Assembly: GCA_000025185.1 (NCBI GenBank)
Contig: CP001848.1
Coordinates: forward strand, 4,410,001-4,442,000
Reading direction: 5' to 3'
Length of the DNA: 32,000 nucleotides
Source: Pirellula staleyi DSM 6068
Lineage (GTDB): Bacteria; Planctomycetota; Planctomycetia; Pirellulales; Pirellulaceae
Shown here in pieces: positions 213 to 15,651 of this stretch (its first letter is position 1; each line of letters opens with the position of its first letter). The translations under genes were made by a program, and so were the position numbers. Under the pieces are notes generated by a model that saw nothing but the letters and a program-made list of their open reading frames with translations, did no database searches and was not told the DNA's origin.

Positions 213-1463
213 TCAATCCACTGAACTGAAGGCTGGACGAGCATCTTGACGGGAAATCTTCCGGCGACGCCTGTGCTTCACCTCGGGCCGCACGGGTGGT
301 CCCATTGGTGTGGCGATCTCGTAGTGTTCAAGCGTTGCGATTTTGCCTGCCTTGTCAGCATGGTTGTTGGCAGCGTGGTCCTCGTCATCCCGCCAGAAAA
401 CTGACAGGTCAGTTCCCAACGGCAGACGATAACGCTTGGCGAGCTGCTCGACCGTCAACCGACATAGTTGCTCGCGTTCCGTGGCGCCATGTACGGGGCT
501 GGGGATGCGAATCAATTTGCGTGACGGAATCTTTCGATTGATGTAATCGGCCCTTAGCAATCCAGCCTTCTGGAGCTGCTTCATAGCCAGCGCCACAGAT
601 CGCTCCGAAAGCCCCGCTTGCTGGGCGATCTGCCCGTGAGTGTTTTCCGGACGCTTCTTTATTCCCTTCCTTTCAAGCCAGCGCAACCACCGCGCCAACA
701 CCAGCGACTGTGTCAGCCGTGGCAACGCTATGAACTCGGAGGCGTTGAGCCACGTTCGCCATTCACATTCATCGGGATGCGGCTTCCATGCGCCATCGAG
801 CTTCCCCAGTTGGGCCAGCTCAAAGTGCACGTTTCGATCCAGCACCAGCACCGGGCCGCGATGCCCCTTTATCTTGAACCGATCAATCAACCCACGTGAC
901 TGCAGGGCATAGACAGCCTCGACGACGCGGCGCTCGGACAACCCGAGCGTATTGAACAGCCGCGTGTAGGTCGCGAAGTAGGGACGCCGCAGAAACTCGT
1001 CCGGATTCGGGTTGAGATCCTCGTCGGTAAGGCCCGCCACAAATGACGGTTTGAGCCTGTGCTTTCCGTAAAGGCCCGGACTGCGTTGATTGAGGTACAC
1101 GAGATGGGACAGCAGCAAGCCCGCACCCACATTCCCTTGCGTGGCGAGGACGGCCCAACTAGAGATCAGTGTGCCAGGTCGTGGATCGTCCGTGGGTCGG
1201 TTGTCCCGACCCATAAAGTGCTCGCAGATTCGACCGAATTGCTCCAGATCGACAGCAGGAGGCGGATTCTTTGGCCGCTTGGGCTCGGGGGTGTCTGGAG
1301 ACTTGCGACTGATCCCCGTGGGATATGGTTTCAGATTGTCAGCTTGGCGGACCGGCAACCCGGGAAGATTTGGACGACGACAACTGGCACCGTGTTCGCT
1401 GCCGTTCGACGCCTCGCCAATTCGACTTGACCGTAAAGAGCGCTTTGATACGCTGACTGACAT
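213..1463 (-). CDS. Putative replication-initiator-like DNA-binding protein with two winged-helix-like segments
   Basis: 416-aa ORF with GGGAGA 7 nt upstream of the ATG at 1463. Two MarR/Rep-like HTH stretches (GLSERRVVEAVYALQSRGLIDRF and AGLSERSVALAMKQLQKAGLLRADYI). Iteron-like repeats lie immediately upstream. The Rep function is inferred from context only. Confidence 0.55.
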   Translation of the reverse strand: MSVSVSKRSLRSSRIGEASNGSEHGASCRRPNLPGLPVRQADNLKPYPTGISRKSPDTPEPKRPKNPPPAVDLEQFGRICEHFMGRDNRPTDDPRPGTLISSWAVLATQGNVGAGLLLSHLVYLNQRSPGLYGKHRLKPSFVAGLTDEDLNPNPDEFLRRPYFATYTRLFNTLGLSERRVVEAVYALQSRGLIDRFKIKGHRGPVLVLDRNVHFELAQLGKLDGAWKPHPDECEWRTWLNASEFIALPRLTQSLVLARWLRWLERKGIKKRPENTHGQIAQQAGLSERSVALAMKQLQKAGLLRADYINRKIPSRKLIRIPSPVHGATEREQLCRLTVEQLAKRYRLPLGTDLSVFWRDDEDHAANNHADKAGKIATLEHYEIATPMGPPVRPEVKHRRRRKISRQDARPAFSSVD

Positions 1464-2925: not shown

Positions 2926-5463
2926 GTGATGGAACCTCTCACGTCGATTGTGGATGTAGCGAAAGCGTTTGATCGAAACGGATTGAAAGAGCGAGCCCAA
3001 AAAGCGGAACAAGAACGGCTTGCTGTGGTGAGCCGGTTTCCGTTGAATCAATGGCCCAGCTTGGAGAAAGAGTCCTACGCGCTCGGGCACGACAAGGCAG
3101 AAGACAGCTTTTGTCGATGGCTCGAATTTCGAACGCCAACGATCGCTGGCATGAAAGGTGGTCAGGCCAGCAAACACCTCCTGTATAAACATGCTCGTAA
3201 ACCAGGCTGGTTTTTCAGTAGCAACTATGGCGACGTCGATTCCGCTTGGGCTGCAATCCGAGCCGGTTTTGTCGAGGCATTCACCAAGGCGCAAGCAGGC
3301 GACTGGGATACCATCGACGACATCGCAGTGCTCAATGGTGGCCAAGCGTTGCGTTCGAAGGCGCTCTACTGCTACTTTCCCACAGAGCTTCTTCCGATCT
3401 GCTCCTCCACGCATATCAAACGCTTCGTCAAAGCAATCCAGCCTGAGTTACTGGAGCACTCCGCCGGTGCGATTCGCCTCAATCGCCAATTGATGAAAGC
3501 TTTGCGCGCGAAAAGTTGCTTTCAAGGTTGGTCGAATTGGGAGCTGGTAGCATTCTTGTATCAATGGAACGATCCACGCGAATCACGACAAATTGTCAAG
3601 ATCGCCCCTGGCGAACAGGCCATGTATTGGGACGACTGTTTGAAGCATGGTTACATCTGCGTTGGTTGGGATGAAGTCGGCGACCTCAAAGATTTTGGAA
3701 CGAAGGAAGAGTTCTTCAGCCGCTTCAAAGAGGTTTACGGCGAGCGCTACACCCCCGCGATGTTGAAACAAAAGGCCAATGAAGTTTGGATACTGCAAGA
3801 GCTGGAAGCGGGAGACATCATCGTTGCCAACAAAGGTACGAGCGAGGTTCTGGCGGTAGGCGAAGTTGTCGACCCCTGCTATGAGTTTCGTAGCGATCGA
3901 GAAGTCTTCACACATACGGTGAATGTTAAATGGAACACATCACTTGCCACGCACATCGAGCCACAAAGGCGTTGGGCTTTTGTCACCGTTGCCAAGTGCC
4001 CAGTCGACCTTTACCAAACCATCGTCGGCAAGAATGCAAAGAAACTTCCGATTCCCATCGACCCGCTTTATGAAGAGATCGCTGCTGCACTTGAAAGAAA
4101 GGGGCAGGCGATTCTCTATGGACCTCCCGGCACCGGAAAAACCTATGCAGCGCGGCGGTTGGCAGTCTGGTGGCTACTGCGAAAGTTTGGTTTGCCGGAA
4201 GCGCAGGAAACGCTTTCCGATCCCCAAAAATTCGCGCAGGCTGAGCGATCGCTTTCGACGGTGCAAGTCAGTCAGCGTGTGTGGTGGGTGACAGCAAGTC
4301 CCAAGACATGGTCGTGGGAACGACTGCGAAAAGAGAAGACCGTTGAATTTCACTATGGACGCCTTCAGCGGAACTACCCACTCGTGCAGCCTGGTGATTT
4401 GGTGATTGGATATCAGTCGACTCCCGACAAACGCATCATGGCACTTGCCCGAATTTCACGTGGCCTCTCGAAATCGGAGTCGGGGGAATCCAGCATCGAA
4501 CTGAGCTACCTGCACGACGTCAAGAATGGCTTGACCTACGACGAACTGCTCGCCGATCCCATCCTCGCGAAGTCCGAGCCGATGCGATTTCGAAGCCAAG
4601 GCACACTCTTTTCGCTCGAGCACGACGAAGTCAATCATCTACTAGCGCGATTGACCGATCGCGATCCCGATGTTGCCGACTATCTCGACGTCGAAGGGCG
4701 TGTTGGTCAACTAACCCGCCTGACGTTTCATGGCTCCTATTCCTACGAAGATTTCATCGAGGGATTTCGCCCCGTGCAGTCGACCGGTGGCCTGACGCTC
4801 AGGCTCGAAGATGGTGTGTTCAAACGTATTTGCCGTGAAGCTCAGGCGAATCCCGATCAGCCTTATCTTGTGTTGATTGACGAGTTCAATCGCGCGAACG
4901 TCGCCAAAGTGTTTGGGGAGTTGATCACGCTGTTAGAACTCGACAAACGGGGACTGATTATCACGCTGCCGCAAAGCAAAGAGAGCTTTTCGATACCTCC
5001 CAATGTGTTTGTTCTGGGGACGATGAATACAGCCGATCGGAGTATTAAACTGCTAGATTCCGCCATGCGACGTCGGTTTGCGTTTATTGAATTGATGCCC
5101 GACACCGAGCTACTTCGAGGTGGGAATATTCACGGACTAGAGCTTTGCGAGTTTCTCACCGAACTCAATCGCCGTATTGCTGAACATGCGGGGCGCGAGA
5201 AGCAAATCGGTCATTCGTTTCTGCTAGAGAAAGGGCAACCGGTCAGCGACGCGGAAGAGTTTGCACGCCGCTTTCGCCAAGAGATCTTGCCACTCTTGCA
5301 AGAGTATTGCTACGACGACTACGAGCAGTTGACGCGTTATCTTGGCAATGGGCTTGTCGACAAAACGGCCCAAGTATTGCAAGAGGAGAAGCTTGCCGAT
5401 GCCGAGGAACTCGTCGCGGTGTTGCTGAGTGAATTCACGCAAGCGAGCAGTGCTGAGTTATGA
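2926..5463 (+). CDS. mcrB: McrB-like AAA+ GTPase subunit of an McrBC restriction system, with extra N-terminal and inserted reader-like domains
   Basis: Walker A GPPGTGKT (4120-4143), FHGSYSYEDFIEGFRP (~4725), Walker B LVLIDEFNRAN (~4867), GTP-specificity motif MNTADRS (~5023), RRRFAF. Stop overlaps the mcrC start (ATGA at 5460). The start may be ATG 2929 (GAGGA 6 nt upstream) rather than GTG 2926. Confidence 0.9.
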   Translation: MMEPLTSIVDVAKAFDRNGLKERAQKAEQERLAVVSRFPLNQWPSLEKESYALGHDKAEDSFCRWLEFRTPTIAGMKGGQASKHLLYKHARKPGWFFSSNYGDVDSAWAAIRAGFVEAFTKAQAGDWDTIDDIAVLNGGQALRSKALYCYFPTELLPICSSTHIKRFVKAIQPELLEHSAGAIRLNRQLMKALRAKSCFQGWSNWELVAFLYQWNDPRESRQIVKIAPGEQAMYWDDCLKHGYICVGWDEVGDLKDFGTKEEFFSRFKEVYGERYTPAMLKQKANEVWILQELEAGDIIVANKGTSEVLAVGEVVDPCYEFRSDREVFTHTVNVKWNTSLATHIEPQRRWAFVTVAKCPVDLYQTIVGKNAKKLPIPIDPLYEEIAAALERKGQAILYGPPGTGKTYAARRLAVWWLLRKFGLPEAQETLSDPQKFAQAERSLSTVQVSQRVWWVTASPKTWSWERLRKEKTVEFHYGRLQRNYPLVQPGDLVIGYQSTPDKRIMALARISRGLSKSESGESSIELSYLHDVKNGLTYDELLADPILAKSEPMRFRSQGTLFSLEHDEVNHLLARLTDRDPDVADYLDVEGRVGQLTRLTFHGSYSYEDFIEGFRPVQSTGGLTLRLEDGVFKRICREAQANPDQPYLVLIDEFNRANVAKVFGELITLLELDKRGLIITLPQSKESFSIPPNVFVLGTMNTADRSIKLLDSAMRRRFAFIELMPDTELLRGGNIHGLELCEFLTELNRRIAEHAGREKQIGHSFLLEKGQPVSDAEEFARRFRQEILPLLQEYCYDDYEQLTRYLGNGLVDKTAQVLQEEKLADAEELVAVLLSEFTQASSAEL

Positions 5464-6767
5464 CCGATATAGCGATGCCAATCGTCGAAGTCTGCGAGTG
5501 GAAGAGTTGTGATCGGCCCGATCTGAATCTCACCGCCGACGATCGCGCTCTTGCGAAATCACTCGCCCAAGAAGGAAAGTGCCGACTGATCGTCGAAGAG
5601 CGGCGTCGTGGAATTCGGATCACAGCACGGTCTTGGGTAGGTGTAGTGCGATTCACTGAATTTGAGGTGCATGTTCGTCCCAAGCTGGCAGGCGATAACC
5701 TGCGACTCCTTCAAATGATTGAGTTCACTACAGGACTCAATACACTCAAACACTACAGTTCTGTATTGAAGTTAGCTGCAGGTGGTGGGAACCTGCTCGA
5801 TCTGATCATGCTGATGTTTGTTGAGGAGTGCGAACGGATCCTTCGTGGCGGATTGCTTTCGGACTACGTTGAAGAGGAAGAGGAACTTCCGGTCGTGCGA
5901 GGTCGAATGCTGTTTGATCGTCAGATTCGCAAGCGATTGGGTCGACTCGACTTGATCCATTGTCGACACGATGAGCGCAAACAAGACGTCCCCGAGAATC
6001 AGCTTCTTGCCTACGTTCTGGATGTCTGCGCGCGGCATGCCTTCCAGCCAACGCTGCGTCGTAAGGCACGACAGCTCGAACATCATTTGCTGGGGAGCTG
6101 TGATCCATCGTTGCTCGATTTAGTGACCACGCGAGGCGGAATCTACTATGACCGCATGAACGAGCACTATCGTGATGCCCATGAATTGTGCTGGCTGATT
6201 GTGGACGCCCTGGGTATCAGCGACATCTATAGTTCGGGCTCCTCGCGCATCTTTGCGTTTCTACTGGACATGAATCGACTGTTTGAAGTTTTTGTGCTGC
6301 AGGTCCTTCGACAATTGACATCTACGACAGCATTAAAGGTTTCGTATCAATCTTCGGATCGCTCGATCATTCGCGACAGCGCGACGAACCAGCCCTACTC
6401 GAGTGTGATACCCGATTTCCTGATAGCGGCCCCCTCATTGTCAGGCAAATTGGTACTCGACGCAAAATACAAACTTTATGACGCAGCAGGAGTCTCTAAT
6501 TCCGACATCTACCAGTCGTTTTTCTATGCCTATGCGTTTGGCCGTCATCAACTTGGTGGTCACGTTGCAGGTTTGATTTACCCTTCGGAATCAACCACAG
6601 CGAGCCGCAAGGAGCTAACCGTGCGGAGCCAATTTAACGCGAATGCTGCACGCGTTGTATTGATTGGCCTTCCCATACCGGCAGTTCTCGATGAAGCGAA
6701 GTCGCACGTCTGGGGACCAGCTACCGCTCCTCTGCAAACTTTCCTCGCTGAGTTCAATAAGGCGTAG
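5460..6767 (+). CDS. mcrC: McrC-like PD-(D/E)xK nuclease subunit
   Basis: 435 aa, translationally coupled to mcrB. C-terminal nuclease motif IPDF...LVLDAKYKLY (~6408-6480) is typical of McrC. The size and the position downstream of mcrB fit. Confidence 0.85.
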   Translation: MTDIAMPIVEVCEWKSCDRPDLNLTADDRALAKSLAQEGKCRLIVEERRRGIRITARSWVGVVRFTEFEVHVRPKLAGDNLRLLQMIEFTTGLNTLKHYSSVLKLAAGGGNLLDLIMLMFVEECERILRGGLLSDYVEEEEELPVVRGRMLFDRQIRKRLGRLDLIHCRHDERKQDVPENQLLAYVLDVCARHAFQPTLRRKARQLEHHLLGSCDPSLLDLVTTRGGIYYDRMNEHYRDAHELCWLIVDALGISDIYSSGSSRIFAFLLDMNRLFEVFVLQVLRQLTSTTALKVSYQSSDRSIIRDSATNQPYSSVIPDFLIAAPSLSGKLVLDAKYKLYDAAGVSNSDIYQSFFYAYAFGRHQLGGHVAGLIYPSESTTASRKELTVRSQFNANAARVVLIGLPIPAVLDEAKSHVWGPATAPLQTFLAEFNKA

Positions 6768-8106: not shown

Positions 8107-8232
8107 CTAACGTCGTCGTCCGCGACGAAGGCCGACTCCGAATGCTTTGCGGCTACCTAGGGATTTCCCCTGTTGGTAGACCCATGCACCTACCACAAGG
8201 ACGACGACCACCAAGATGATAGATTCGATCAC
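8107..8232 (-). CDS. Small single-pass membrane peptide with an Arg-rich tail (41 aa)
   Basis: GTG at 8232 is preceded by AGGAGA with a 6-nt spacer. Product (M)IESIILVVVVLVVGAWVYQQGKSLGSRKAFGVGLRRGRRR. The longer 96-aa ORF (8107..8397) overlaps the nuclease gene and is unlikely to be real. Confidence 0.35.
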   Translation of the reverse strand: MIESIILVVVVLVVGAWVYQQGKSLGSRKAFGVGLRRGRRR

Positions 8233-8288
8233 GCGAATTCTCCTATTGCACAGTGTTTGTAGATTCGTGTTTTCAATAGTTTGCAAAA

Positions 8289-9113
8289 TCAGCCCTGCCA
8301 ACTGCGGCAAGGCTTTTGAAACGGACAGTTGGGGCAGTTCATTGGCGATGGAATGGGGTAGACGATCCCGCGCCGCATCGCTTGCCAAACCTGCCAAAAA
8401 ATGGATCGAGTCCGCTTAATCCGCGCCGAGTCGATGCTGATCTTGCGCATTTCGACGACAGGCGACTTCGACTTCGTTACCACCAGGAATTGCAGCCGAA
8501 TTGGCTTGCCGGGCATTAGCTCCTTAGCGAGCTCGGAATAGAGCATTAGCTGTCCGCCGCTGTCGTGTGCCTGATGCTGGCTCCATCGGCTTTTCGCAGT
8601 TTTAAGATCCGTCACTACCAGTTCACTGCCCTCGTCGAGTATCAAGTCGACACGAGCAAGTAGTTCGGGGCACCCCTCTACGATTCGACCGCGCAGTTCT
8701 TCTTCTACCCCAACGATTTGGCCGTTCGGGTTTGCCAAAGGACTTGCTCGGAAGGCAGACAGTACACGTTCGGCGAGATCGCTAAGTGAGTTGATGTCTT
8801 CGTCTTTGCCGAACTTGATGCTGGCAAGATCGCGTTCCAGCCACGCCGCATGATAGGCGGAAAGCAGTGTATCCAAGGCCGGAGCTGGATTACCTGACAA
8901 GAGTTCGTAGTAATGTAGTTCGGCAGCTTGGTGGATCGCGCTGCCAAAGACCAAGCTGGACGATACGAAGGCCTCTGGAAGACCGTGGACATACCGAAAA
9001 CACCAGCGCAGTGGACAAGCCTGATACGTCGATATCGCTGACCACGAGATGTAATTTCTGCCCGTCAGTTTCTCAGCTACTTCGTTGGGGTCGACGTCGA
9101 GCTCAAGACTCAT
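8289..9113 (-). CDS. Cas4/RecB-like PD-(D/E)xK exonuclease with a 4-Cys (Fe-S type) arrangement
   Basis: N-terminal Cys in YQACPLRW. Core RVDLILDE...LVVTDLKTAKS (8581-8630). C-terminal CPNCPFQKPC, giving the C...CxxCx5C pattern of Cas4/AddB nucleases. The ATGA start overlaps the upstream gene at 9110-9113. Confidence 0.8.
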   Translation of the reverse strand: MSLELDVDPNEVAEKLTGRNYISWSAISTYQACPLRWCFRYVHGLPEAFVSSSLVFGSAIHQAAELHYYELLSGNPAPALDTLLSAYHAAWLERDLASIKFGKDEDINSLSDLAERVLSAFRASPLANPNGQIVGVEEELRGRIVEGCPELLARVDLILDEGSELVVTDLKTAKSRWSQHQAHDSGGQLMLYSELAKELMPGKPIRLQFLVVTKSKSPVVEMRKISIDSARIKRTRSIFWQVWQAMRRGIVYPIPSPMNCPNCPFQKPCRSWQG

Positions 9114-9565
9114 CGTCCCCCTCCGCTGTCGCTGGTCTGAGGCTTAAACGCATCAATCAGTTCCGAAGCCTCCGTGATCGATAGTTCGTCGGCCCGTTTG
9201 ACACCGTAGCGAGCAGCAACTTCTGATGCTAAGTCGATCGCTTGGCGAGTTGCGATACCGTGGAGCGCGCGAACCTGGCTGGCTGTTGCGCTCCGTCGCT
9301 TTGCTGGATGTTGATGACGGCCGCTACCATGTCCGTTGCCATTAGCGTGGCCGTTGGTCGCCGGAGGTGCCGCTTCGCCTTTCAGCTCCTCCTCAACGGC
9401 TTCTTTCGCGAGCCGAAACAAATAGCGAATCTTCTCGCGCAGTTGGTCCGGTTCCCGGACGAGGCTCGACTCCAGTTCGACCTCCAAGTTTACGCTCGCT
9501 CCTCGCGAGCCATAGTTCGCTTCACCGACTTTGCGGTTAAGGCCGACATTCATCGTAAGTGGCAT
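9110..9565 (-). CDS. Hypothetical protein (151 aa) with a His/Gly/Asn-rich linker
   Basis: GGAGC 7 nt upstream of the ATG. Translationally coupled to the nuclease gene. No motif recognised. Confidence 0.65.
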   Translation of the reverse strand: MPLTMNVGLNRKVGEANYGSRGASVNLEVELESSLVREPDQLREKIRYLFRLAKEAVEEELKGEAAPPATNGHANGNGHGSGRHQHPAKRRSATASQVRALHGIATRQAIDLASEVAARYGVKRADELSITEASELIDAFKPQTSDSGGGR

Positions 9566-9630
9566 GATCTGCTCCGACTTGAAATGGACAACAATAGATC
9601 GAAACGGTGGAGTCGCTTGGCCACCGTTTG

Positions 9631-11079
9631 CTACGCAACATGCTGCAACTGTTTGAGCGAAGCTAGCGCCGACTTGAGTGACTTCTGGCTGCGCTTTTCG
9701 ACGTTGATCTGCCGAATCAGATCCTTGACTGCATCAAGCGTTGATCGCAGTTGGTCTCGCACGACGACAGCCTGCTCGTAAGCTCCACCTGGCCTTTTCG
9801 GCGATGTCGCGGAGCAATGGCGATTGGGCGAGTGCTTCGCAGCGACTCGCGGCTCATTCGTAGGTGGAGCTGAAGAAGCCTGTTGCGCGGCTGGTCTGGA
9901 AGCAATTCGATTCACCGCAATTGCACTTCGAGTAAGTGAGCTAGGTTGACGGTGGCCGGAGCTAAGCGGCGACTCGATGCGAAGGCAATCGGTGGTCGGC
10001 TTGATCGCCTCTTTGGGATCGAGAACCATCCACAAAAAGACGCGGGAACCGTCACGGGCCACAGCAGGCGACGTGTTGTCGGGCAGTTCGATCTCTGTAA
10101 ATCCCAATCGCGCCGCTCGCGCCAAGTACTGGCGATCTGTGCAAACGAGCAGATCGTCGCCTCGCTTACTGGAGTTGCGCAGAACCATCTCGGTGGGGCG
10201 AAGAGTGTCAGGAGCTGAGGCTCGGAGAACGACGTGTCCATTGACGTCGAGCGTCAATTCACGATTCGTTGTGCCGCTCGGGAGTCGATGGAGATTTTCG
10301 GTCAGGAACTTCGCATCGGTAGAACCGAGCTGTAGCGTCGCCTTACTGTGGCCAGGCGCGGGAACAGTTCTGTCCACATCGGGGTAGCGTCCTTCGACGA
10401 CAGGCAGCCAATACGACCAGGGGCCGATCTGGAACACGACCATCTTGTCGCCGCTCTTGCCGACTCGCACCGGCTGATCAGCGGGGAGATGCTTGCTGGC
10501 GAAGAGCTTCGTTTGGCAGAGTAGCAAATCCTCGTCAAATCCAAACGTGAAGCCGGATTGCTTCAGGAGTTGTCGGCCATCGGTGGCGGCAATCACCCCT
10601 TCGCGGCCGCGCACCTGGATGCTTGCGAGTGCGTAGCGACTGCTTTCGGCATCGGTAGTTTCGTATGCTTCGCGCAGTGCAGTCAGAAGCGCGGGCGGAT
10701 TCTCGCTGAAGGTCTCCGGCAGAGTTGGGAACGGTGGAGCATCCGCACTGGATTCAGGAGCATCGTACTCCAGATCGCGCACAATACCTCTGTCTTCCCA
10801 GTTCGCGCCGAGCACGCCGTCGCGGCGAGAGTCTAAATAGACCGGCTCAGGTTTCGATCCCTGAACGTCCTCCAGCACGTTAAACGGAACGAGTAAGTGC
10901 TGCTGCTCACGAGGCTGCGGATCGTGATATCGCAGAGCTTGATTGGCCCCTTGGACATCGATGAACAAGCCATCCTGTCCCGCGCGAAACGCAAGAGCGG
11001 GTATTGGGCCTCGGCCTGGAAACAACATTTTGACCATCGAGCGAAGTTGTTTGGCCAGCAGACGGGAAATTTGAATCAA
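9631..11079 (-). CDS. DNA polymerase III beta sliding-clamp homologue (DnaN-like) with a ~110-aa C-terminal extension
   Basis: SRYALASIQVRGREGVIAATDGRQLL (10561-10600 region) matches the (S/T)RY.L.G...ATDGHRL clamp signature, about 150 aa from the N-terminus as in DnaN. Start chosen as TTG 11079 with AAGGAG 8 nt upstream. The 552-aa track ORF has an implausible N-terminal extension. Confidence 0.75.
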   Translation of the reverse strand: MIQISRLLAKQLRSMVKMLFPGRGPIPALAFRAGQDGLFIDVQGANQALRYHDPQPREQQHLLVPFNVLEDVQGSKPEPVYLDSRRDGVLGANWEDRGIVRDLEYDAPESSADAPPFPTLPETFSENPPALLTALREAYETTDAESSRYALASIQVRGREGVIAATDGRQLLKQSGFTFGFDEDLLLCQTKLFASKHLPADQPVRVGKSGDKMVVFQIGPWSYWLPVVEGRYPDVDRTVPAPGHSKATLQLGSTDAKFLTENLHRLPSGTTNRELTLDVNGHVVLRASAPDTLRPTEMVLRNSSKRGDDLLVCTDRQYLARAARLGFTEIELPDNTSPAVARDGSRVFLWMVLDPKEAIKPTTDCLRIESPLSSGHRQPSSLTRSAIAVNRIASRPAAQQASSAPPTNEPRVAAKHSPNRHCSATSPKRPGGAYEQAVVVRDQLRSTLDAVKDLIRQINVEKRSQKSLKSALASLKQLQHVA

Positions 11080-11167
11080 GGCTAGGACTCCTTGGTGATT
11101 GCAGAAGATCGAAAAGGGGGCAGCAGCCCGATTGCTGCCGCCGTGAAAAAGCCAGCACACAGCGTCG

Positions 11168-11359
11168 TTAGGCCGCGTAGTTTCCTCGCGCCAGATCGAG
11201 CATGTCCCAATCCACCGTATTGGGATCAAGGTTTTCTTCTTCCTGCTCGATCGGAAAGACTTGCAGTGGCGAAATGATGCTGAATCCACGACGACTGACA
11301 GTACGGACCGATTCGCCGGTGGCTTCCGCCACAGCTTGGTTTAGTTCTGCTTGGGTCAT
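11168..11359 (-). CDS. Small protein (63 aa); N-terminus resembles HU/IHF helix 1
   Basis: Internal ATG 11359 is preceded by GAGGAG. MTQAELNQAVAEATGESVRTVS resembles the MxKxELxxAVAExTGxS start of HU/IHF proteins, but the protein is too short to be a full HU. Confidence 0.45.
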   Translation of the reverse strand: MTQAELNQAVAEATGESVRTVSRRGFSIISPLQVFPIEQEEENLDPNTVDWDMLDLARGNYAA

Positions 11360-11390: not shown

Positions 11391-11427
11391 AAAAAAGGCT
11401 CGCCAGCGCACGCGCGCAGAACGAGCC
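11391..11427 (-). terminator. Intrinsic terminator splitting the minus-strand block into two units
   Basis: Minus strand reads GGCTCG-ttct-GCGC-gcgt-GCGC-tgg-CGAGCC followed by TTTTTTGTTTG. It lies between the stop at 11473 and the next start at 11359. Confidence 0.55.
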
Positions 11428-11472: not shown

Positions 11473-11718
11473 CTAGACAGCTGGTGTAAGCCAATGCTCT
11501 GCCAGCCAGGCCACCTCGGCCGCTAAGGCGTCGCTGCGAGATTCAAACGGCCCTAGAGTAGGACCGGAAACCGGTGACAGATCGCAGAGCCAGCGTCCCT
11601 GCGAATCGGGCTCGACGTGCGATCCTCGGCGAATGGTGAGTAGTCCGAACTGCGCGAGGTCAATCGCTTCGCTGTAGATGCAGCGCAGGTCGCCGCTGGG
11701 TTCAATGACTAGCTCCAT
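11473..11718 (-). CDS. Hypothetical protein (81 aa)
   Basis: ORF starts 9 nt after the upstream stop (operon packing). Normal composition. No motif recognised. Confidence 0.55.
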   Translation of the reverse strand: MELVIEPSGDLRCIYSEAIDLAQFGLLTIRRGSHVEPDSQGRWLCDLSPVSGPTLGPFESRSDALAAEVAWLAEHWLTPAV

Positions 11719-11726
11719 GGGGATAG

Positions 11727-12671
11727 TCAGCCCTTTCCCCGGCGCAGAATGTTACGGCGAGGCTTATCGACCAGCAGGCCGTCAAGCGTTGCTTGAACGG
11801 TCGAGAGCTGTGTGGCGATTTCTTGCCGGAGCGCGGCATCGTCGCGCAGTTGCTGTGGCTGGACTCCCGAAACGATGCTGCGGGCATCGGACACTAGCGA
11901 GTCGAGCTGTTCATTGGATCGTACATTGAGTTGCCGGAAGCGCTCGAAGAACTCACGCAGGTTCTCGATGGCCGAGTCGCGGAAGATTTTTGGCTTGCCG
12001 TCGTCGCCACCGCTAAGCCGCTCCGTGAGATGCGAAACGAGCTTCGCCAGTTCTTCTGTGAACGCTTGTTCGGCAAGCTGAACCGCTTCATCGAATCGCG
12101 CAGCAACACGGGCGGCTTCGCGCTCGTAAAGCTGCGGCGCGAGCCGATGGAGATAGTTGGGCGGTTCCACGGACGGAAAATCCCAACTCACGTCGAACCA
12201 ACCACGCAGCGTCGCCGGATAATCACTCGCGTTGTAGAGCGACCCGAGCCTGCGACGGGCGGCCGACTTCAATTCGTCGTACCGAGTTTCAAGTTGCCGC
12301 ACCGATTCTTCCAGCTCCTGCCGGAAGGTCGTGAGCTGCAGCGAGAACCCTTCGATCATGACTTGGCGAATCAGGCGAATCCCCGGCTCGGGAAACGGGA
12401 GCGAGACATTCCGCCAGTACGCAAGAATCTGGGTTCGTACACTCGTGACCGCTTTGAAACTGGGATGGGACGTATCGAGCAGCTTCTTCCCGGCTGACAG
12501 ATAGGTTCGCTCGGCCCCGAAGGTCTCGGCCGCTTGCGACTTTTGTTCGGCGCTGAGGGTCTTACGGACTCCAAGCCAGGTGAACATGACGCGGACGGCT
12601 GCCGTCGTGGCGCGCAGTCGCTCCACCGAATCGCTGGCCGCATTAGAAAGATCGTCTAATAGTGTGGGCAT
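11727..12671 (-). CDS. Hypothetical helical protein (314 aa), possibly DUF3150-like
   Basis: AAGGAA 6 nt upstream of the ATG. Long predicted coiled/helical segments. The DUF3150 assignment is from memory of family-like length and context only. Confidence 0.6.
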   Translation of the reverse strand: MPTLLDDLSNAASDSVERLRATTAAVRVMFTWLGVRKTLSAEQKSQAAETFGAERTYLSAGKKLLDTSHPSFKAVTSVRTQILAYWRNVSLPFPEPGIRLIRQVMIEGFSLQLTTFRQELEESVRQLETRYDELKSAARRRLGSLYNASDYPATLRGWFDVSWDFPSVEPPNYLHRLAPQLYEREAARVAARFDEAVQLAEQAFTEELAKLVSHLTERLSGGDDGKPKIFRDSAIENLREFFERFRQLNVRSNEQLDSLVSDARSIVSGVQPQQLRDDAALRQEIATQLSTVQATLDGLLVDKPRRNILRRGKG

Positions 12672-12716
12672 GAAGATTCCTTGGAATTTGGTTAAGAGTT
12701 AGGGGGCGATGGAGAG

Positions 12717-13280
12717 CTACGCCGCGCGGCGAAGGCCAAGCGACTTGCCGATTTCAAACGCTGGTAACGGTGATGGCCTGACAGGGATGATCCGCTGGAA
12801 CCGCTGCATCACCTCGTCGCATTGTTGCCGTAGCTGTCGTCGCGGCCCGCGATACAACTGCCTGCGAAACGCAGTGAGTGTTTCGGCGAACTCCCAGACT
12901 GGCAGTGCGGCTGTCACCAGTTCGCCATCGTGCAGTGGCAATGAACACTCGCCGATTTCAGGGCGATACACGGTGAGTGTCTCACCGCCGTCAAACCCGG
13001 CTTCGGTTTGGAGATCAAACGGGATTCGTCGCTTGCGGAGGAACGCTTCGAGCGGCTCCATCCGCCCATGACGGGCCTCTGCATCCAACAGACGCAGTAC
13101 ACTTTCGCCGTCAATTGTTTGCCGCGCGGCGAGTAGATCGTCCGCCGACTGTGGCAAGAATGGCTCATCGCCCCAATCGAGGGCGACTCGCTGCAAGCGA
13201 ATCGTTGAACACAGACTTGGCACGATCGCCCGTGAAAGGCAGCCGCCGATGGTGATTTGAGCGGCGCGAAAATCCGACAT
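12717..13280 (-). CDS. Hypothetical protein (187 aa)
   Basis: Internal ATG 13280 (MSDFRAAQ...) is preceded by AGGAG 8 nt upstream. The upstream extension to 13355 lacks an RBS. Confidence 0.6.
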   Translation of the reverse strand: MSDFRAAQITIGGCLSRAIVPSLCSTIRLQRVALDWGDEPFLPQSADDLLAARQTIDGESVLRLLDAEARHGRMEPLEAFLRKRRIPFDLQTEAGFDGGETLTVYRPEIGECSLPLHDGELVTAALPVWEFAETLTAFRRQLYRGPRRQLRQQCDEVMQRFQRIIPVRPSPLPAFEIGKSLGLRRAA

Positions 13281-13363
13281 CGGACATCTCCTGAAATATG
13301 AAAAAGTTTGTTGGGAATGCGCATCCACTACGCAGCGGACGCGCTGTAGCAACACAAGTTCCC

Positions 13364-14854
13364 TTAGTTCTGCGACGGATCACGCGAGACTTTGCGGCGA
13401 GCCTTGGTCTCCGCCGCGCACCGGTAGATCCCAGGTTGGTCGGCACTGAGGCAGCGCCCCGATGCCCACGCGCGCAACTTGCTGACCGATTCGGCGGCAG
13501 TGACGGCGACTGGCACGACGTTCTGTGCAGCCTGAATCAGCGGCAGGTCGAGAATTGAGGCCAGACGACAGCAAGCTCGAATCTCAGCGCCTGTCCAACC
13601 TTCGTCAGGAGGGAGTCGTTGGCGAGCATCGAGGTCAAACTGATGGAGGTACAGTCGCCAAATCGCTTGACGCTCCTCCTCACCTGGCAAGTTCAAAAAG
13701 AAGACACCGTCGAAACGCTCAGCTCGCGAGAACTCGGGAGGTAGCCGCGAAATGTCGTTGCACGTGGCAACTAAGTAGACATCACTGGTGTGATCGTTCA
13801 TCCAAGTGAGCAGCGAACCGAACAGCCTTGCCGAGACACCGCTATCACCGCTGCTTCCAACACCCGAGAGACTCTTTTCAATCTCATCTGCAAACAGGAT
13901 GCAGGGGGACATGGCGTCGGCAATCTTGAGCGCCTGCCGAATATTGGATTCCGACTGACCGACGAGGCTCCCCATCAGTGCGCCGATATCGAGCGTAAGT
14001 GTTGGCCTGCCAGTTTCGTGCCCCAACGCTTTGGCAAATGCGCTCTTCCCTGTGCCAGGTACACCCAGCAGCAGCACACCGCGCGGACGCTTGTGAGGCT
14101 GTCGCTGTGAAGTGTGCAGCAACGATCGCTTGCAAAATGCTTTCAGTGCTTGGAGTCCTCCCAAGCTCTGAAAGTCCTGCTCACTTCGATGCAATTGCAG
14201 CAGACCACTTTTCTTTAGCTGTTGCGATTTGAGTTCCCAAAGTGGTTGGGGTTCGATCCTTCCGTGTCGAACAAGTGAGAGGCTAAATGCGTTCTCAGCT
14301 TCGTGTCGCGTAAGGCCTACCGCCGCATCCAGAACGCGATCGAGCCCCGCTCCCGAAGGAAGCTCTCCCTCTTCTGTCGCTACTTCCTGGGCAATCGACC
14401 GTAGCTGCTCGCGTGACGGCAGCTCATGCTCCATCACCACGAATAACTTTTCGAGCTCCACCGGAATCTGAACGATCGGCGCGAGAATCACCAATATGGT
14501 TCGATTCTGTTTACCGGCCACGATCTGACGAGCGAGTGCCTGAACAATCTCTGCGCTCTGCAGGAATCGGTGGAAATTCTGAAGCACGAGAATCGCAGTG
14601 CCATCGGGGGTCGCCAGACCGTTGATTGATCGGATTGCCGCGAGTGGATCTTGGCCACCGCTTTCCGTGGGGGACGATTGTGCTGCGATCACCAATCCCG
14701 ATTCGATGTCCCAAGTGGCCATGTGCCATGCAGGTTGTTGCTGCTCACACATCTGGCGGATTTCAGTGAGAGCGTCGGAATGTTCGTGGGATTCAATCCA
14801 TAGTCCGCTGAAAGCAGCGGCAATGTGTTCTTGCAGTTGGGTAGCTAAGGACAT
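13364..14854 (-). CDS. Classical-clade AAA+ ATPase, Ycf46-like (496 aa)
   Basis: Walker A GVLLLGVPGTGKS (14041-14080), Walker B CILFADEIEK (13873-13902), and an FtsH/Cdc48-type second region of homology. ATG 14854 is preceded by GGGAGGTG. The N-terminal domain MSLATQLQEHIAAAFSGLWIESHEHSDAL resembles Ycf46-type proteins. Confidence 0.88.
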   Translation of the reverse strand: MSLATQLQEHIAAAFSGLWIESHEHSDALTEIRQMCEQQQPAWHMATWDIESGLVIAAQSSPTESGGQDPLAAIRSINGLATPDGTAILVLQNFHRFLQSAEIVQALARQIVAGKQNRTILVILAPIVQIPVELEKLFVVMEHELPSREQLRSIAQEVATEEGELPSGAGLDRVLDAAVGLTRHEAENAFSLSLVRHGRIEPQPLWELKSQQLKKSGLLQLHRSEQDFQSLGGLQALKAFCKRSLLHTSQRQPHKRPRGVLLLGVPGTGKSAFAKALGHETGRPTLTLDIGALMGSLVGQSESNIRQALKIADAMSPCILFADEIEKSLSGVGSSGDSGVSARLFGSLLTWMNDHTSDVYLVATCNDISRLPPEFSRAERFDGVFFLNLPGEEERQAIWRLYLHQFDLDARQRLPPDEGWTGAEIRACCRLASILDLPLIQAAQNVVPVAVTAAESVSKLRAWASGRCLSADQPGIYRCAAETKARRKVSRDPSQN

Positions 14855-15088
14855 AGCACCTCCCTGGAAATTTGAATGTTGCGCGGCATCCAAAACGGTG
14901 AGCCGAAGAAGAAACCTTGCTGCAACGAGCAGTAGGTCTTTAGAAGTCACAGCGCGAAGGCGCATAGCCCTGCCCTGCGATCGAAATGTTTGGTTGGCCA
15001 AGACTGATTAGGAGCGACAGCGAGTATGGCCTGCTGCTGTATGTGATAGGAGTTGAGTTCTGCAGTGATCGCAGACGCGAGAAATCGA

Positions 15089-15286
15089 CTAACCGGCTCG
15101 CCCCTCGTGCGATTGTTGCTGTGTCGATGGAGTGTAGAACTCGCTGGTCAGCTTCTCGGATGTCACAGCTCCTAGCGCCTGCTCTAAGTAGGCCGACGCG
15201 GACTTGCATTCTTGACCGCCAATTCCTTTCGTGTGAATGGAAAGTTGACCACTCGTTGAAATAATCACTTCGATGATCTGGCTCAC
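15089..15286 (-). CDS. DUF2997-like small protein (65 aa)
   Basis: (M)SQIIEVIISTSGQLSIHTKGIGGQECKSASAYLEQALG fits the DUF2997 pattern (I.V.I.pdG.v.i..kG..G..C......le.aLG). The GTG start overlaps the upstream stop (GTGA), and GGGAGG lies upstream. Confidence 0.65.
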   Translation of the reverse strand: MSQIIEVIISTSGQLSIHTKGIGGQECKSASAYLEQALGAVTSEKLTSEFYTPSTQQQSHEGRAG

Positions 15287-15651
15287 GCTGCACCTCCCAC
15301 ATGGATGGTCAGTTTGATCTCGCCGCTGGGAAGTGTTTGCTCGGTGACGGAATGTCCGCGTTTACGAGCCTCGATCTTCGCTTTTTCAGCAGCGTAGGCT
15401 TGCAGAAACTTGTCGAGTTCAGCTTGCTCCCCCCAGCGCCCGCCATAGTTGTCAAAATCAACCCGCCCACTGCTGACATCAACGACAGCCGGATATTTCC
15501 AGCCTGGTAGCTGAACGATCAGTCCTGTTTTCGTCGTAGTAAATAGCTTCGCTGTGCCCTGCGTCGGTGCCGGAATTCTGATCCGCCGACAGGCAGCATC
15601 CACAGCCACTGGATCACGAACTTGCGTTTGAATCTGAACAATGTGTGACAT
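15283..15651 (-). CDS. DUF1257 (Ycf35-like) protein (122 aa)
   Basis: MSHIVQIQTQVRD...LPGWKYPAVVD...DNYGGRWGEQAELDKFLQAYA matches the remembered DUF1257 pattern (MSHFS.I.T.I.D ... GW.YP ... Y.G.WG). AGGAGG 8 nt upstream of the ATG. Confidence 0.72.
   Translation of the reverse strand: MSHIVQIQTQVRDPVAVDAACRRIRIPAPTQGTAKLFTTTKTGLIVQLPGWKYPAVVDVSSGRVDFDNYGGRWGEQAELDKFLQAYAAEKAKIEARKRGHSVTEQTLPSGEIKLTIHVGGAA

Follow-up and report, generated by a model that had tools for sequence, protein, structure and literature searches.

A tailed sliding-clamp paralogue encoded with a Cas4-like nuclease in a mobile-island cassette of Pirellula staleyi

A 32,000-nucleotide (nt) stretch of the Pirellula staleyi DSM 6068 genome (contig CP001848.1, positions 4,410,001 to 4,442,000; the window, in whose coordinates features are given below) carries on its minus strand, at 8107-11359, a unit of five genes that includes a 482-amino-acid (aa) accessory paralogue of the bacterial beta sliding clamp (DnaN) and a 274-aa exonuclease of the Cas4/AddB/RecB type. 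The unit makes up the 3' end of a longer cassette, within which it is a sub-module probably transcribed on its own, and the cassette is the constant backbone of integrating islands of Planctomycetota that carry defence genes as cargo. The unit most likely processes or repairs the DNA of its own element, and it is probably not a new immune system. A more specific proposal, held with somewhat less than even confidence, is that it supplies element-borne DNA end processing together with recombinational repair or recombination-dependent replication, in the manner of the ssb-bet-exo (hde) genes of IncC plasmids but with a private clamp.

The unit begins with a 63-aa acidic protein (11168-11359, preceded by a GAGGAG ribosome-binding site, RBS), followed by the clamp (9631-11079), a 151-aa two-domain protein (9110-9565), the nuclease (8289-9113) and a 41-aa single-pass membrane peptide with an Arg-rich tail (8107-8232). 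All five had been called in an earlier sequence-only reading of the window, and all are present and conserved; because the same order recurs in many other genomes, they are not chance open reading frames (ORFs). Neither these frames nor the cassette genes upstream are disrupted, and their RBSs are good. The clamp gene starts at the TTG at 11079, 8 nt past an AAGGAG; a 552-aa reading from the GTG at 11289 was rejected, as it runs into the 63-aa gene and the homologues begin MIQ or MIE. The stop codon of the 151-aa gene and the start codon of the nuclease gene overlap as ATGA, bearing out the coupling read earlier, and the gaps within the series from clamp to peptide are short. The peptide gene has a GTG start after AGGAGA and a 13-bp GC hairpin on its 3' side. 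Upstream of the unit, a terminator-like hairpin read from the sequence (GGCTCG...CGAGCC followed by six T residues, about 11395-11427, minus strand) parts the 81-aa gene of the cassette from the five genes, and a terminator scan lists a weaker site overlapping it. A 9-bp perfect hairpin, AAACGGTGG...CCACCGTTT, lies at 9600-9628, within the 65 nt that separate the clamp stop from the start of the 151-aa gene. No T-run follows it, nor is there a terminator T-run anywhere between these two genes; the hairpin may contribute to mRNA processing or stability.

The 482-aa protein is a true three-domain DnaN paralogue, an accessory clamp and not the housekeeping single-copy one. Scans against Pfam and NCBIfam gave no match at E<=0.1, and the protein fails the clamp models PF00712, PF02767, PF02768 and TIGR00663. 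In a phmmer search of the Protein Data Bank (PDB), three DnaN chains rank first (best E 6e-4); a profile built from 33 homologues matches 25 clamp sequences there (best E 7e-9, profile positions 135-355), and the protein matches PHROG 947, "DNA polymerase processivity factor" (1.3e-7). An AlphaFold (AF2) model built from the 33-homologue alignment has a mean predicted local distance difference test (pLDDT) score of 88. The top 50 PDB structures matched to this model by Foldseek are all bacterial clamps (E 7e-21), with template modelling (TM) scores of 0.74-0.80 normalised by target, and the superposition extends over about 375 columns, which indicates that all three clamp domains are present. 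Profile, model and fold matches thus agree on the divergent accessory DnaN-like protein of the earlier reading, and the three-domain clamp fold is predicted with high confidence. The canonical host dnaN is found 3.1 Mb away, at genome positions 1281632-1282738 (194 bits against a cut-off of 137.65); its product has only local similarity to the paralogue, with 31% identity over 103 residues. Neither of the two outcomes that would have refuted the earlier reading, a model lacking the clamp fold or a genome with no other dnaN, was therefore obtained.

Clamps line their partner-binding pocket, in E. coli beta, with the sequence blocks RY.L, ATDG+.L and G+[FY]PD. The paralogue retains them: the signature SRY.L....ATDG+.L pointed out earlier is present as SSRYAL...AATDGRQLL, ATDG is invariant across the 33 homologues, and the blocks SRYAL, ATDGRQL and EGR[FY]PD are invariant or at least 90% conserved among them and align with their equivalents in Pseudomonas aeruginosa DnaN and in the host DnaN. 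The pocket is probably functional. Structures of DnaN from E. coli (1mmi), P. aeruginosa (6ams) and Streptococcus pyogenes (2avt) share with the paralogue the three-domain fold over about 375 positions, these blocks and a C-terminal MP[LM] strand, although sequence identity is just 12-19%. The paralogue differs from DnaN in its setting, a mobile island rather than a place beside dnaA and recF, and in a C-terminal extension of about 110 residues. In the model the three folded clamp domains take up residues 1-370; these are followed by a Ser/Pro/Ala linker (about 372-432, of which 381-428 are predicted to be disordered) and a single predicted helix of 49 residues (433-481), basic and amphipathic. 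The linker and helical tail, described in the sequence-only reading as absent from housekeeping clamps, are thus borne out by the predictions. Two further details of this region have no counterpart in DnaN. Just beyond the canonical clamp end, residues 365-371 (window about 9967-9987) form a high-confidence strand with the conserved sequence D.LRIESP, and the tail helix, which is rich in Lys and Arg and has a Leu heptad pattern, ends in a conserved LASLKQLQ.

The nuclease gives a full-length match to PDDEXK_1 (PF12705; 7.9e-33, 114.9 bits against a cut-off of 22) and also matches PHROG 69 and PHROG 1218, both annotated "exonuclease". In the alignment of its homologues, D156, the D169-x-K171 pair and Y192 are invariant and a Q..LY (QhxxY) motif is conserved. 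Four cysteines, C33 and three in the C-terminal CPNCPFQKPC (CxxCx5C), are kept in every homologue not cut by a contig end. This is the iron-sulphur (Fe-S) arrangement of Cas4 and AddB, and binding of a 4Fe-4S cluster is putative; the earlier assignment to the PD-(D/E)xK nucleases with a four-Cys pattern holds. Exonuclease activity with 5'-3' polarity is predicted from the family. The RecB-type motifs and the C-x(n)-C-x2-C-x5-C cluster are common to this protein and CRISPR-associated Cas4, but it scores 37.9 bits against the Cas4 model TIGR00372, under the cut-off of 65, and the window contains no cas1, cas2 or other cas gene and no CRISPR array. A CRISPR-associated Cas4 was rejected on these grounds, and the protein is instead a "solo/MGE Cas4-like" PDDEXK_1 protein, MGE standing for mobile genetic element, in the sense of PMC5704561.

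The 151-aa protein may serve the nuclease as a partner or adaptor, on the combined basis of its model, fold matches, ATGA coupling and co-variation. Its AF2 model (pLDDT 81) has an N-terminal domain composed of a long beta-hairpin and a helix, a disordered Gly/Asn/His-rich linker and a three-helix C-terminal domain resembling DUF3072. Among PDB structures the top three Foldseek matches are all the C-terminal domain (CTD) of Red-beta (E 0.05-0.4, probability 0.98-1.0, TM 0.62-0.67), two of them complexes with the tail of the single-stranded DNA-binding protein (SSB) and one the complex with lambda Exo (6m9k), and matches in BFVD include several phage ERF annealases. Sequence profiles give a weak DUF3072 match in 19 of 29 members and PHROG 286 in 15 of the 29; a profile search of the PDB with this protein gave no credible match. 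Annealases have a common beta-beta-beta-alpha core (PMC11611040), of which the 151-aa protein holds at most a part. The modelled likeness to the Red-beta CTD and ERF is suggestive, not proof, and the protein is possibly a minimal annealing protein.

The two smallest products have no assigned family. The N-terminus of the 63-aa protein, MTQxEL..AVA.ATGE...RRGFS, resembles an HU/IHF or helix-turn-helix (HTH) helix pair, and a DWD motif is invariant among its homologues, although no match was found in Pfam, NCBIfam or PHROG. The 41-aa peptide has the pattern W.Y..GK..GSRKaF.vG.RRGR, which is conserved in its counterparts; ORFs of 36-45 aa are conserved at its position in other loci.

Synteny was assessed by tblastn of the window proteins against 52 clamp loci, each count being taken over the loci with enough flank. 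A fixed order emerges, running DUF1257 - DUF2997 - Ycf46-like AAA+ ... 314 aa - 81 aa ... 63 aa - clamp - 151 aa - nuclease - peptide. The gene for the 63-aa protein immediately precedes that for the clamp in 37 of 50 loci; the 314-aa and 81-aa proteins accompany the clamp in 31 of 40, the 151-aa protein and nuclease in 29 of 43, and the AAA+ protein in 24 of 37. One locus (L065) has the five-gene unit alone, without the rest of the cassette, in agreement with the terminator upstream of the 63-aa gene. Co-variation of the genes was measured as the Spearman rank correlation (rho) of identity to the window proteins across loci, a crude measure, as related genomes share history. On this measure the 151-aa protein follows the nuclease (rho 0.61), and the clamp follows the 314-aa protein (0.70) and the 63-aa protein (0.52) but not the nuclease (0.00); the closest clamps (54-55% identical) carry distant nuclease pairs, and vice versa. 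The correlations within and between the pairs indicate that two sub-modules, 63 aa - clamp and 151 aa - nuclease, have been shuffled. They back a functional pairing of the 151-aa protein with the nuclease and weaken the case for a tightly co-adapted contact between clamp and nuclease.

Upstream of the unit, the other half of the cassette occupies 11473-15651 on the same strand and encodes the 81-aa protein, the 314-aa protein, a 212-aa variable gene product, the Ycf46-like AAA+ protein and the small DUF2997/DUF1257 proteins, with synteny in more than 30 loci. The 314-aa protein is probably a divergent DUF3150 member, assigned only through an intermediate homologue: neither the 11 members searched nor the genome gives a direct match to DUF3150 (PF11348), whereas a Manganitrophus plasmid protein 32% identical to it (E 5e-38) passes at 35.3 bits against 24.9. 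The gene order on that plasmid is AAA - DUF1257 - DUF2997 - DUF3150 - 84 aa. No credible match to the 314-aa protein came from a profile search of the PDB. The AAA+ protein has an AAA domain (2.7e-28) and matches PHROG 8638 (4.7e-89); a role as clamp loader was rejected, since the protein falls within the classical CDC48/FtsH-like clade and its match to PHROG 168 is generic. The cassette has no polymerase, primase, helicase or clamp-loader-type (DnaX/HolB) gene. An ATP-dependent DNA ligase of the PRK09125 type lies in or beside seven cassettes, between the AAA+ and DUF3150 genes or after the nuclease, in one case with a WGR domain (L005); the cassette in the window lacks it.

Recombinases directly adjoin the cassette in several genomes: a tyrosine integrase and an HTH_17 protein in two loci, a large serine recombinase and an HTH_17 protein directly after the clamp in another (L027, which also has the ligase), and three tyrosine recombinases in a fourth. 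Genes for DUF2726, RAMA, metallophosphatase, SIR2-HerA, type I restriction-modification (R-M), CHAT and NERD proteins vary between and around the cassette blocks. The adjacent recombinases, the presence of several copies per genome, the decayed copies and the carriage of defence genes as cargo together favour the mobile element over defence. The sequence-only reading had left the choice between mobile-element replication or recombination and an attack on foreign DNA; the genomic context favours the former and leaves the latter less likely.

Several described systems have a similar make-up. The hde operon of IncC plasmids begins with genes for an AAA+ ATPase and an unknown protein, continues with ssb-bet-exo, and repairs element DNA cut by host defences (PMC7498323). 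Like it, the cassette is an operon-like set on a mobile element that combines an AAA+ protein, an unknown protein, an accessory factor that binds DNA, a small partner for recombination and a 5'-3' exonuclease of the PD-(D/E)xK superfamily, with the clamp in the place of ssb. The parallel is not exact: the hde exonuclease is of the YqaJ/lambda Exo type, whereas that of the unit is of the Cas4/RecB type with a predicted Fe-S cluster; the 151-aa protein is not recognisable as a RecT/Red-beta protein; and the AAA+ protein is Ycf46-like, or MoxR-like in a Gemmataceae variant described below. The role of hde is published, while that of the unit is read here from its genes. In lambda Red (Exo - Red-beta) and in gp17-gp18-gp19 of the rudivirus SIRV2, as here, a small partner gene lies just upstream of the exonuclease gene and is coupled to it. 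The SIRV2 genes gp17-gp18-gp19 encode ssDNA binding, annealing and a Cas4-like nuclease. According to references cited in PMC6105669, this virus shows that nucleases of the Cas4-like kind act together with annealing proteins, and it recruits the sliding clamp of its host. The Red-beta CTD, which binds lambda Exo and SSB, resembles the three-helix domain of the 151-aa protein with weak scores, and the N-terminal domain of the latter is a beta-hairpin and helix only, not the full annealase core. Whereas lambda Red and SIRV2 use the clamp of the host, the five-gene unit encodes its own.

In the proposed mechanism, the exonuclease would resect the ends of element DNA that has been broken, is excised or is replicating. 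The 151-aa protein would hold the nuclease, pass on the 3' tails and possibly anneal them. The host loader might then place the clamp on the resulting primer-template junctions, where it would recruit host polymerase, along with the ATP-dependent ligase of the cassette in several relatives, and repair or recombination-dependent replication could be completed. A bolder version, which is doubtful, treats the clamp as the DNA-loaded platform of a hitherto unrecognised mobile-element machine instead of as a replication processivity factor. The ring, perhaps with its basic helix, would mark broken or replicating element DNA and organise the exonuclease, the miniature annealase-like adaptor, the ligase and an AAA+/DUF3150 remodeller into a counter-defence repair complex or, alternatively, would guide an immune nuclease against invading replicons.

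A number of observations weigh against the end-processing and repair proposal. The nuclease is absent from 14 of the 43 clamp loci, some of which carry unrelated tail-anchored proteins instead; with the nuclease missing from a third of loci, the clamp has no strict need of it, and the absence of co-variation between the two points the same way. A search of the nuclease and the 151-aa protein turned up no QL[SD]LF-like peptide for clamp binding, and a scan of all cassette proteins for clamp-binding motifs returned the QhxxY core of the nuclease and internal chance matches only. What stands of the clamp and nuclease unit of the earlier reading is therefore its operonic arrangement within mobile DNA, whereas clamp-tethered nuclease action finds no backing in the motif scan, the correlation or the loci without nuclease. 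The unit includes no recognised annealase, SSB or polymerase, the 151-aa protein has no sequence-profile match to any annealase family, and its similarity to the Red-beta CTD and ERF is weak (E 0.002-0.4) and concerns a small helical domain. The clamp family was not found in INPHARED phages, PLSDB plasmids or IMG/VR, so phage or plasmid carriage cannot be claimed for it, and independent replication or transfer of the clamp islands is unproven. The cassette also sits among defence genes, with McrBC at 2926-6767, ARMADA from 19400 onwards and a prokaryotic Argonaute (pAgo)-SIR2 pair downstream of the window.

This last setting, which also includes a reverse transcriptase (RT), is one basis for a defence role, in which the clamp would load on or slide along foreign DNA, such as free ends, nicks and replication intermediates of phages or plasmids, and position the Cas4-like nuclease to degrade it, with the AAA+/DUF3150 proteins as sensor or regulator and the peptide as an abortive effector. 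SIR2-HerA, type I R-M, CHAT and NERD genes flank the cassette in other loci, PADLOC gives weak matches for the AAA+ protein (IetA-like) and the nuclease (Cas4 and DruK), and the clamp evolves fast, with a median identity of 35% as against about 62% for the AAA+, DUF3150 and 81-aa genes across the same loci. Such a role is nevertheless quite unlikely. The clamp and the 151-aa, 63-aa, 314-aa and 81-aa proteins match nothing in PADLOC-DB 2.0, and the cassette is constant while the defence genes vary and are even inserted between its genes. Multiple divergent copies per genome and decayed copies suit selfish backbone genes better, recombinases directly adjoin the cassette, and conjugative plasmids have a related AAA/DnaN-like/DUF3150/VWA block in the region devoted to transfer and establishment.

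It is also unlikely that the clamp is solely a replication accessory, capturing the host replisome so that the excised island replicates as an episome, with the nuclease and 151-aa protein an unrelated recombination pair tied to it by gene order only. Such a division would fit the co-variation of the clamp with the 63-aa and DUF3150 genes and not with the nuclease pair, the loci where it occurs without the nuclease, the processivity factors that make up the phage clamps of PHROG 947, and iteron-like repeats that lie beside genes for winged-helix and ParB-HTH proteins at 213-2686 of the same island. It is less easily reconciled with the lack of polymerase, primase, helicase and clamp-loader genes in the cassette, with the short gaps and the missing terminator T-run between the clamp and 151-aa genes, or with the order clamp - 151 aa - nuclease - peptide being kept in 29 loci over wide divergence, one of them the solitary unit. 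That the unit is a decaying remnant, left over from an old element and now inactive and without function in this genome, is very improbable: although there is no recognisable recombinase beside the cassette inside the window and no second tRNA-Ser 3' end in the genome, and truncated copies exist in other genomes, the reading frames here are undamaged, the catalytic and pocket residues are conserved and the closest relatives, 84-90% identical, are full length.

Both accessory sliding clamps and exonuclease/annealase pairs are familiar in their own right. If the repair proposal is correct, evasion of host defence by break repair, as established for IncC/SXT elements, would extend to a distant phylum and the sliding clamp would have a new use; if the unit were instead a defence system, it would be the first clamp-based immune nuclease. 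DUF3150, DUF1257, DUF2997, Ycf46-like AAA+ and PRTRC-side DnaN-like genes recur on plasmids, integrative and conjugative elements (ICEs) and islands of many phyla, and the clamp offers a testable biochemical handle on this set. As few mobile elements of the Planctomycetota have been characterised, the cassette is also a practical marker for the islands of this phylum. No functional study of DnaN-like or clamp homologues of mobile elements, of DUF3150 or of PRTRC was found in the literature searched, nor is a clamp mentioned in the Cas4 phylogenomics paper; the combination of a large tailed clamp family that extends across the phylum, a Cas4-type nuclease and an AAA+/DUF3150 cassette is undescribed there.

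The clamp family comprises at least 1406 clusters (50% identity) at E<=1e-30, and 109 close homologues are all about 480 aa long and all tailed. The named genomes are almost all Planctomycetota, among them Pirellulales, Planctomycetaceae, Gemmataceae, Thermoguttaceae, Singulisphaera, Kolteria and Anatilimnocola; outside the phylum the clamp occurs in two metagenome-assembled genomes (MAGs) of other phyla. Distribution within the phylum is patchy, with the clamp found in at least 9 of 301 sampled genomes, and some MAGs carry two to four divergent copies. Truncated or decayed cassettes are found at three loci: at L019:9591-11053 a deletion fuses clamp residues 1-269 straight to nuclease residues 48-274, and L020 and L017 have truncated clamps without the nuclease pair.

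More distant arrangements share part of this gene set. A Burkholderia conjugative plasmid protein (e.g. NZ_CP045575) also matches the 314-aa protein, and the genes there encode, in order, an AAA ATPase, a "DNA polymerase III subunit beta" (267 aa, PF02767 at 38 bits), the 314-aa homologue and a VWA protein, in a block between the PRTRC and type IV secretion system (T4SS) genes. Clamp-like, DUF3150-like and AAA+ genes thus stand together on a mobile element, as they do here, but the clamp-like plasmid protein is short, the central one is the only clamp domain detected in it, and it has no profile similarity or homology to the planctomycete clamp family; the block has no Cas4-like nuclease and no 151-aa protein. 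In a Gemmataceae/Gemmatales variant (L003/L053, L054, L056, L062) the tailed clamp is followed by Ala/Val-rich, tail-anchored proteins of 190 and 211 aa, which take the place of the 151-aa protein and nuclease. Upstream of the clamp in L003 are genes for a MoxR-type ATPase, a 299-aa unknown and a DUF2201/VWA protein. The ATPase and the VWA/DUF2201 protein of the variant are clear homologues of the Burkholderia genes (36-43% identical), whereas the 299-, 190- and 211-aa proteins, considered as relatives of the 314-aa and 151-aa proteins, show no homology to them. The association of a clamp-like gene with AAA+ and DUF3150 genes is thus a recurrent feature of mobile elements, and the Cas4-type nuclease pair is the planctomycete elaboration.

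Around the window, a tRNA-Ser(GCT) gene precedes the window start by about 2.6 kb and is about 10.7 kb from the five-gene unit. In the same segment just upstream of the window (L025:17291-19190, genome 4407291-4409190) it is followed by a 536-aa ORF with no match in Pfam, NCBIfam or the PDB; visual inspection shows blocks like those of tyrosine recombinases in the C-terminal half. The ORF may encode a highly divergent integrase and mark the start of the island, although it is assignable to no recombinase family. A repeat of the tRNA-Ser 3' end that could serve as the far attachment site occurs nowhere else in the genome, and the far end of the island was not found. The island extends into the 20 kb downstream of the window (L026, genome 4442001-4462000), where there are genes for a 1044-aa reverse-transcriptase protein and for a 660-aa Piwi-domain protein, which adjoins a 437-aa SIR2_2 protein in a short pAgo-SIR2-type pair. 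Near the start of the window, at 1627-1734, four direct copies of TGAAACTGCGAAnnnGGTA, of which none is expected by chance, are followed by an AT-rich run. They lie between the gene for a 416-aa winged-helix protein (213-1463, minus strand; HTH_Crp_2, HTH_36) and that for a ParB-HTH/DUF1016_N protein (2027-2686). The copies look like iterons or operators, and the region could be a replication origin or a control region of the island.

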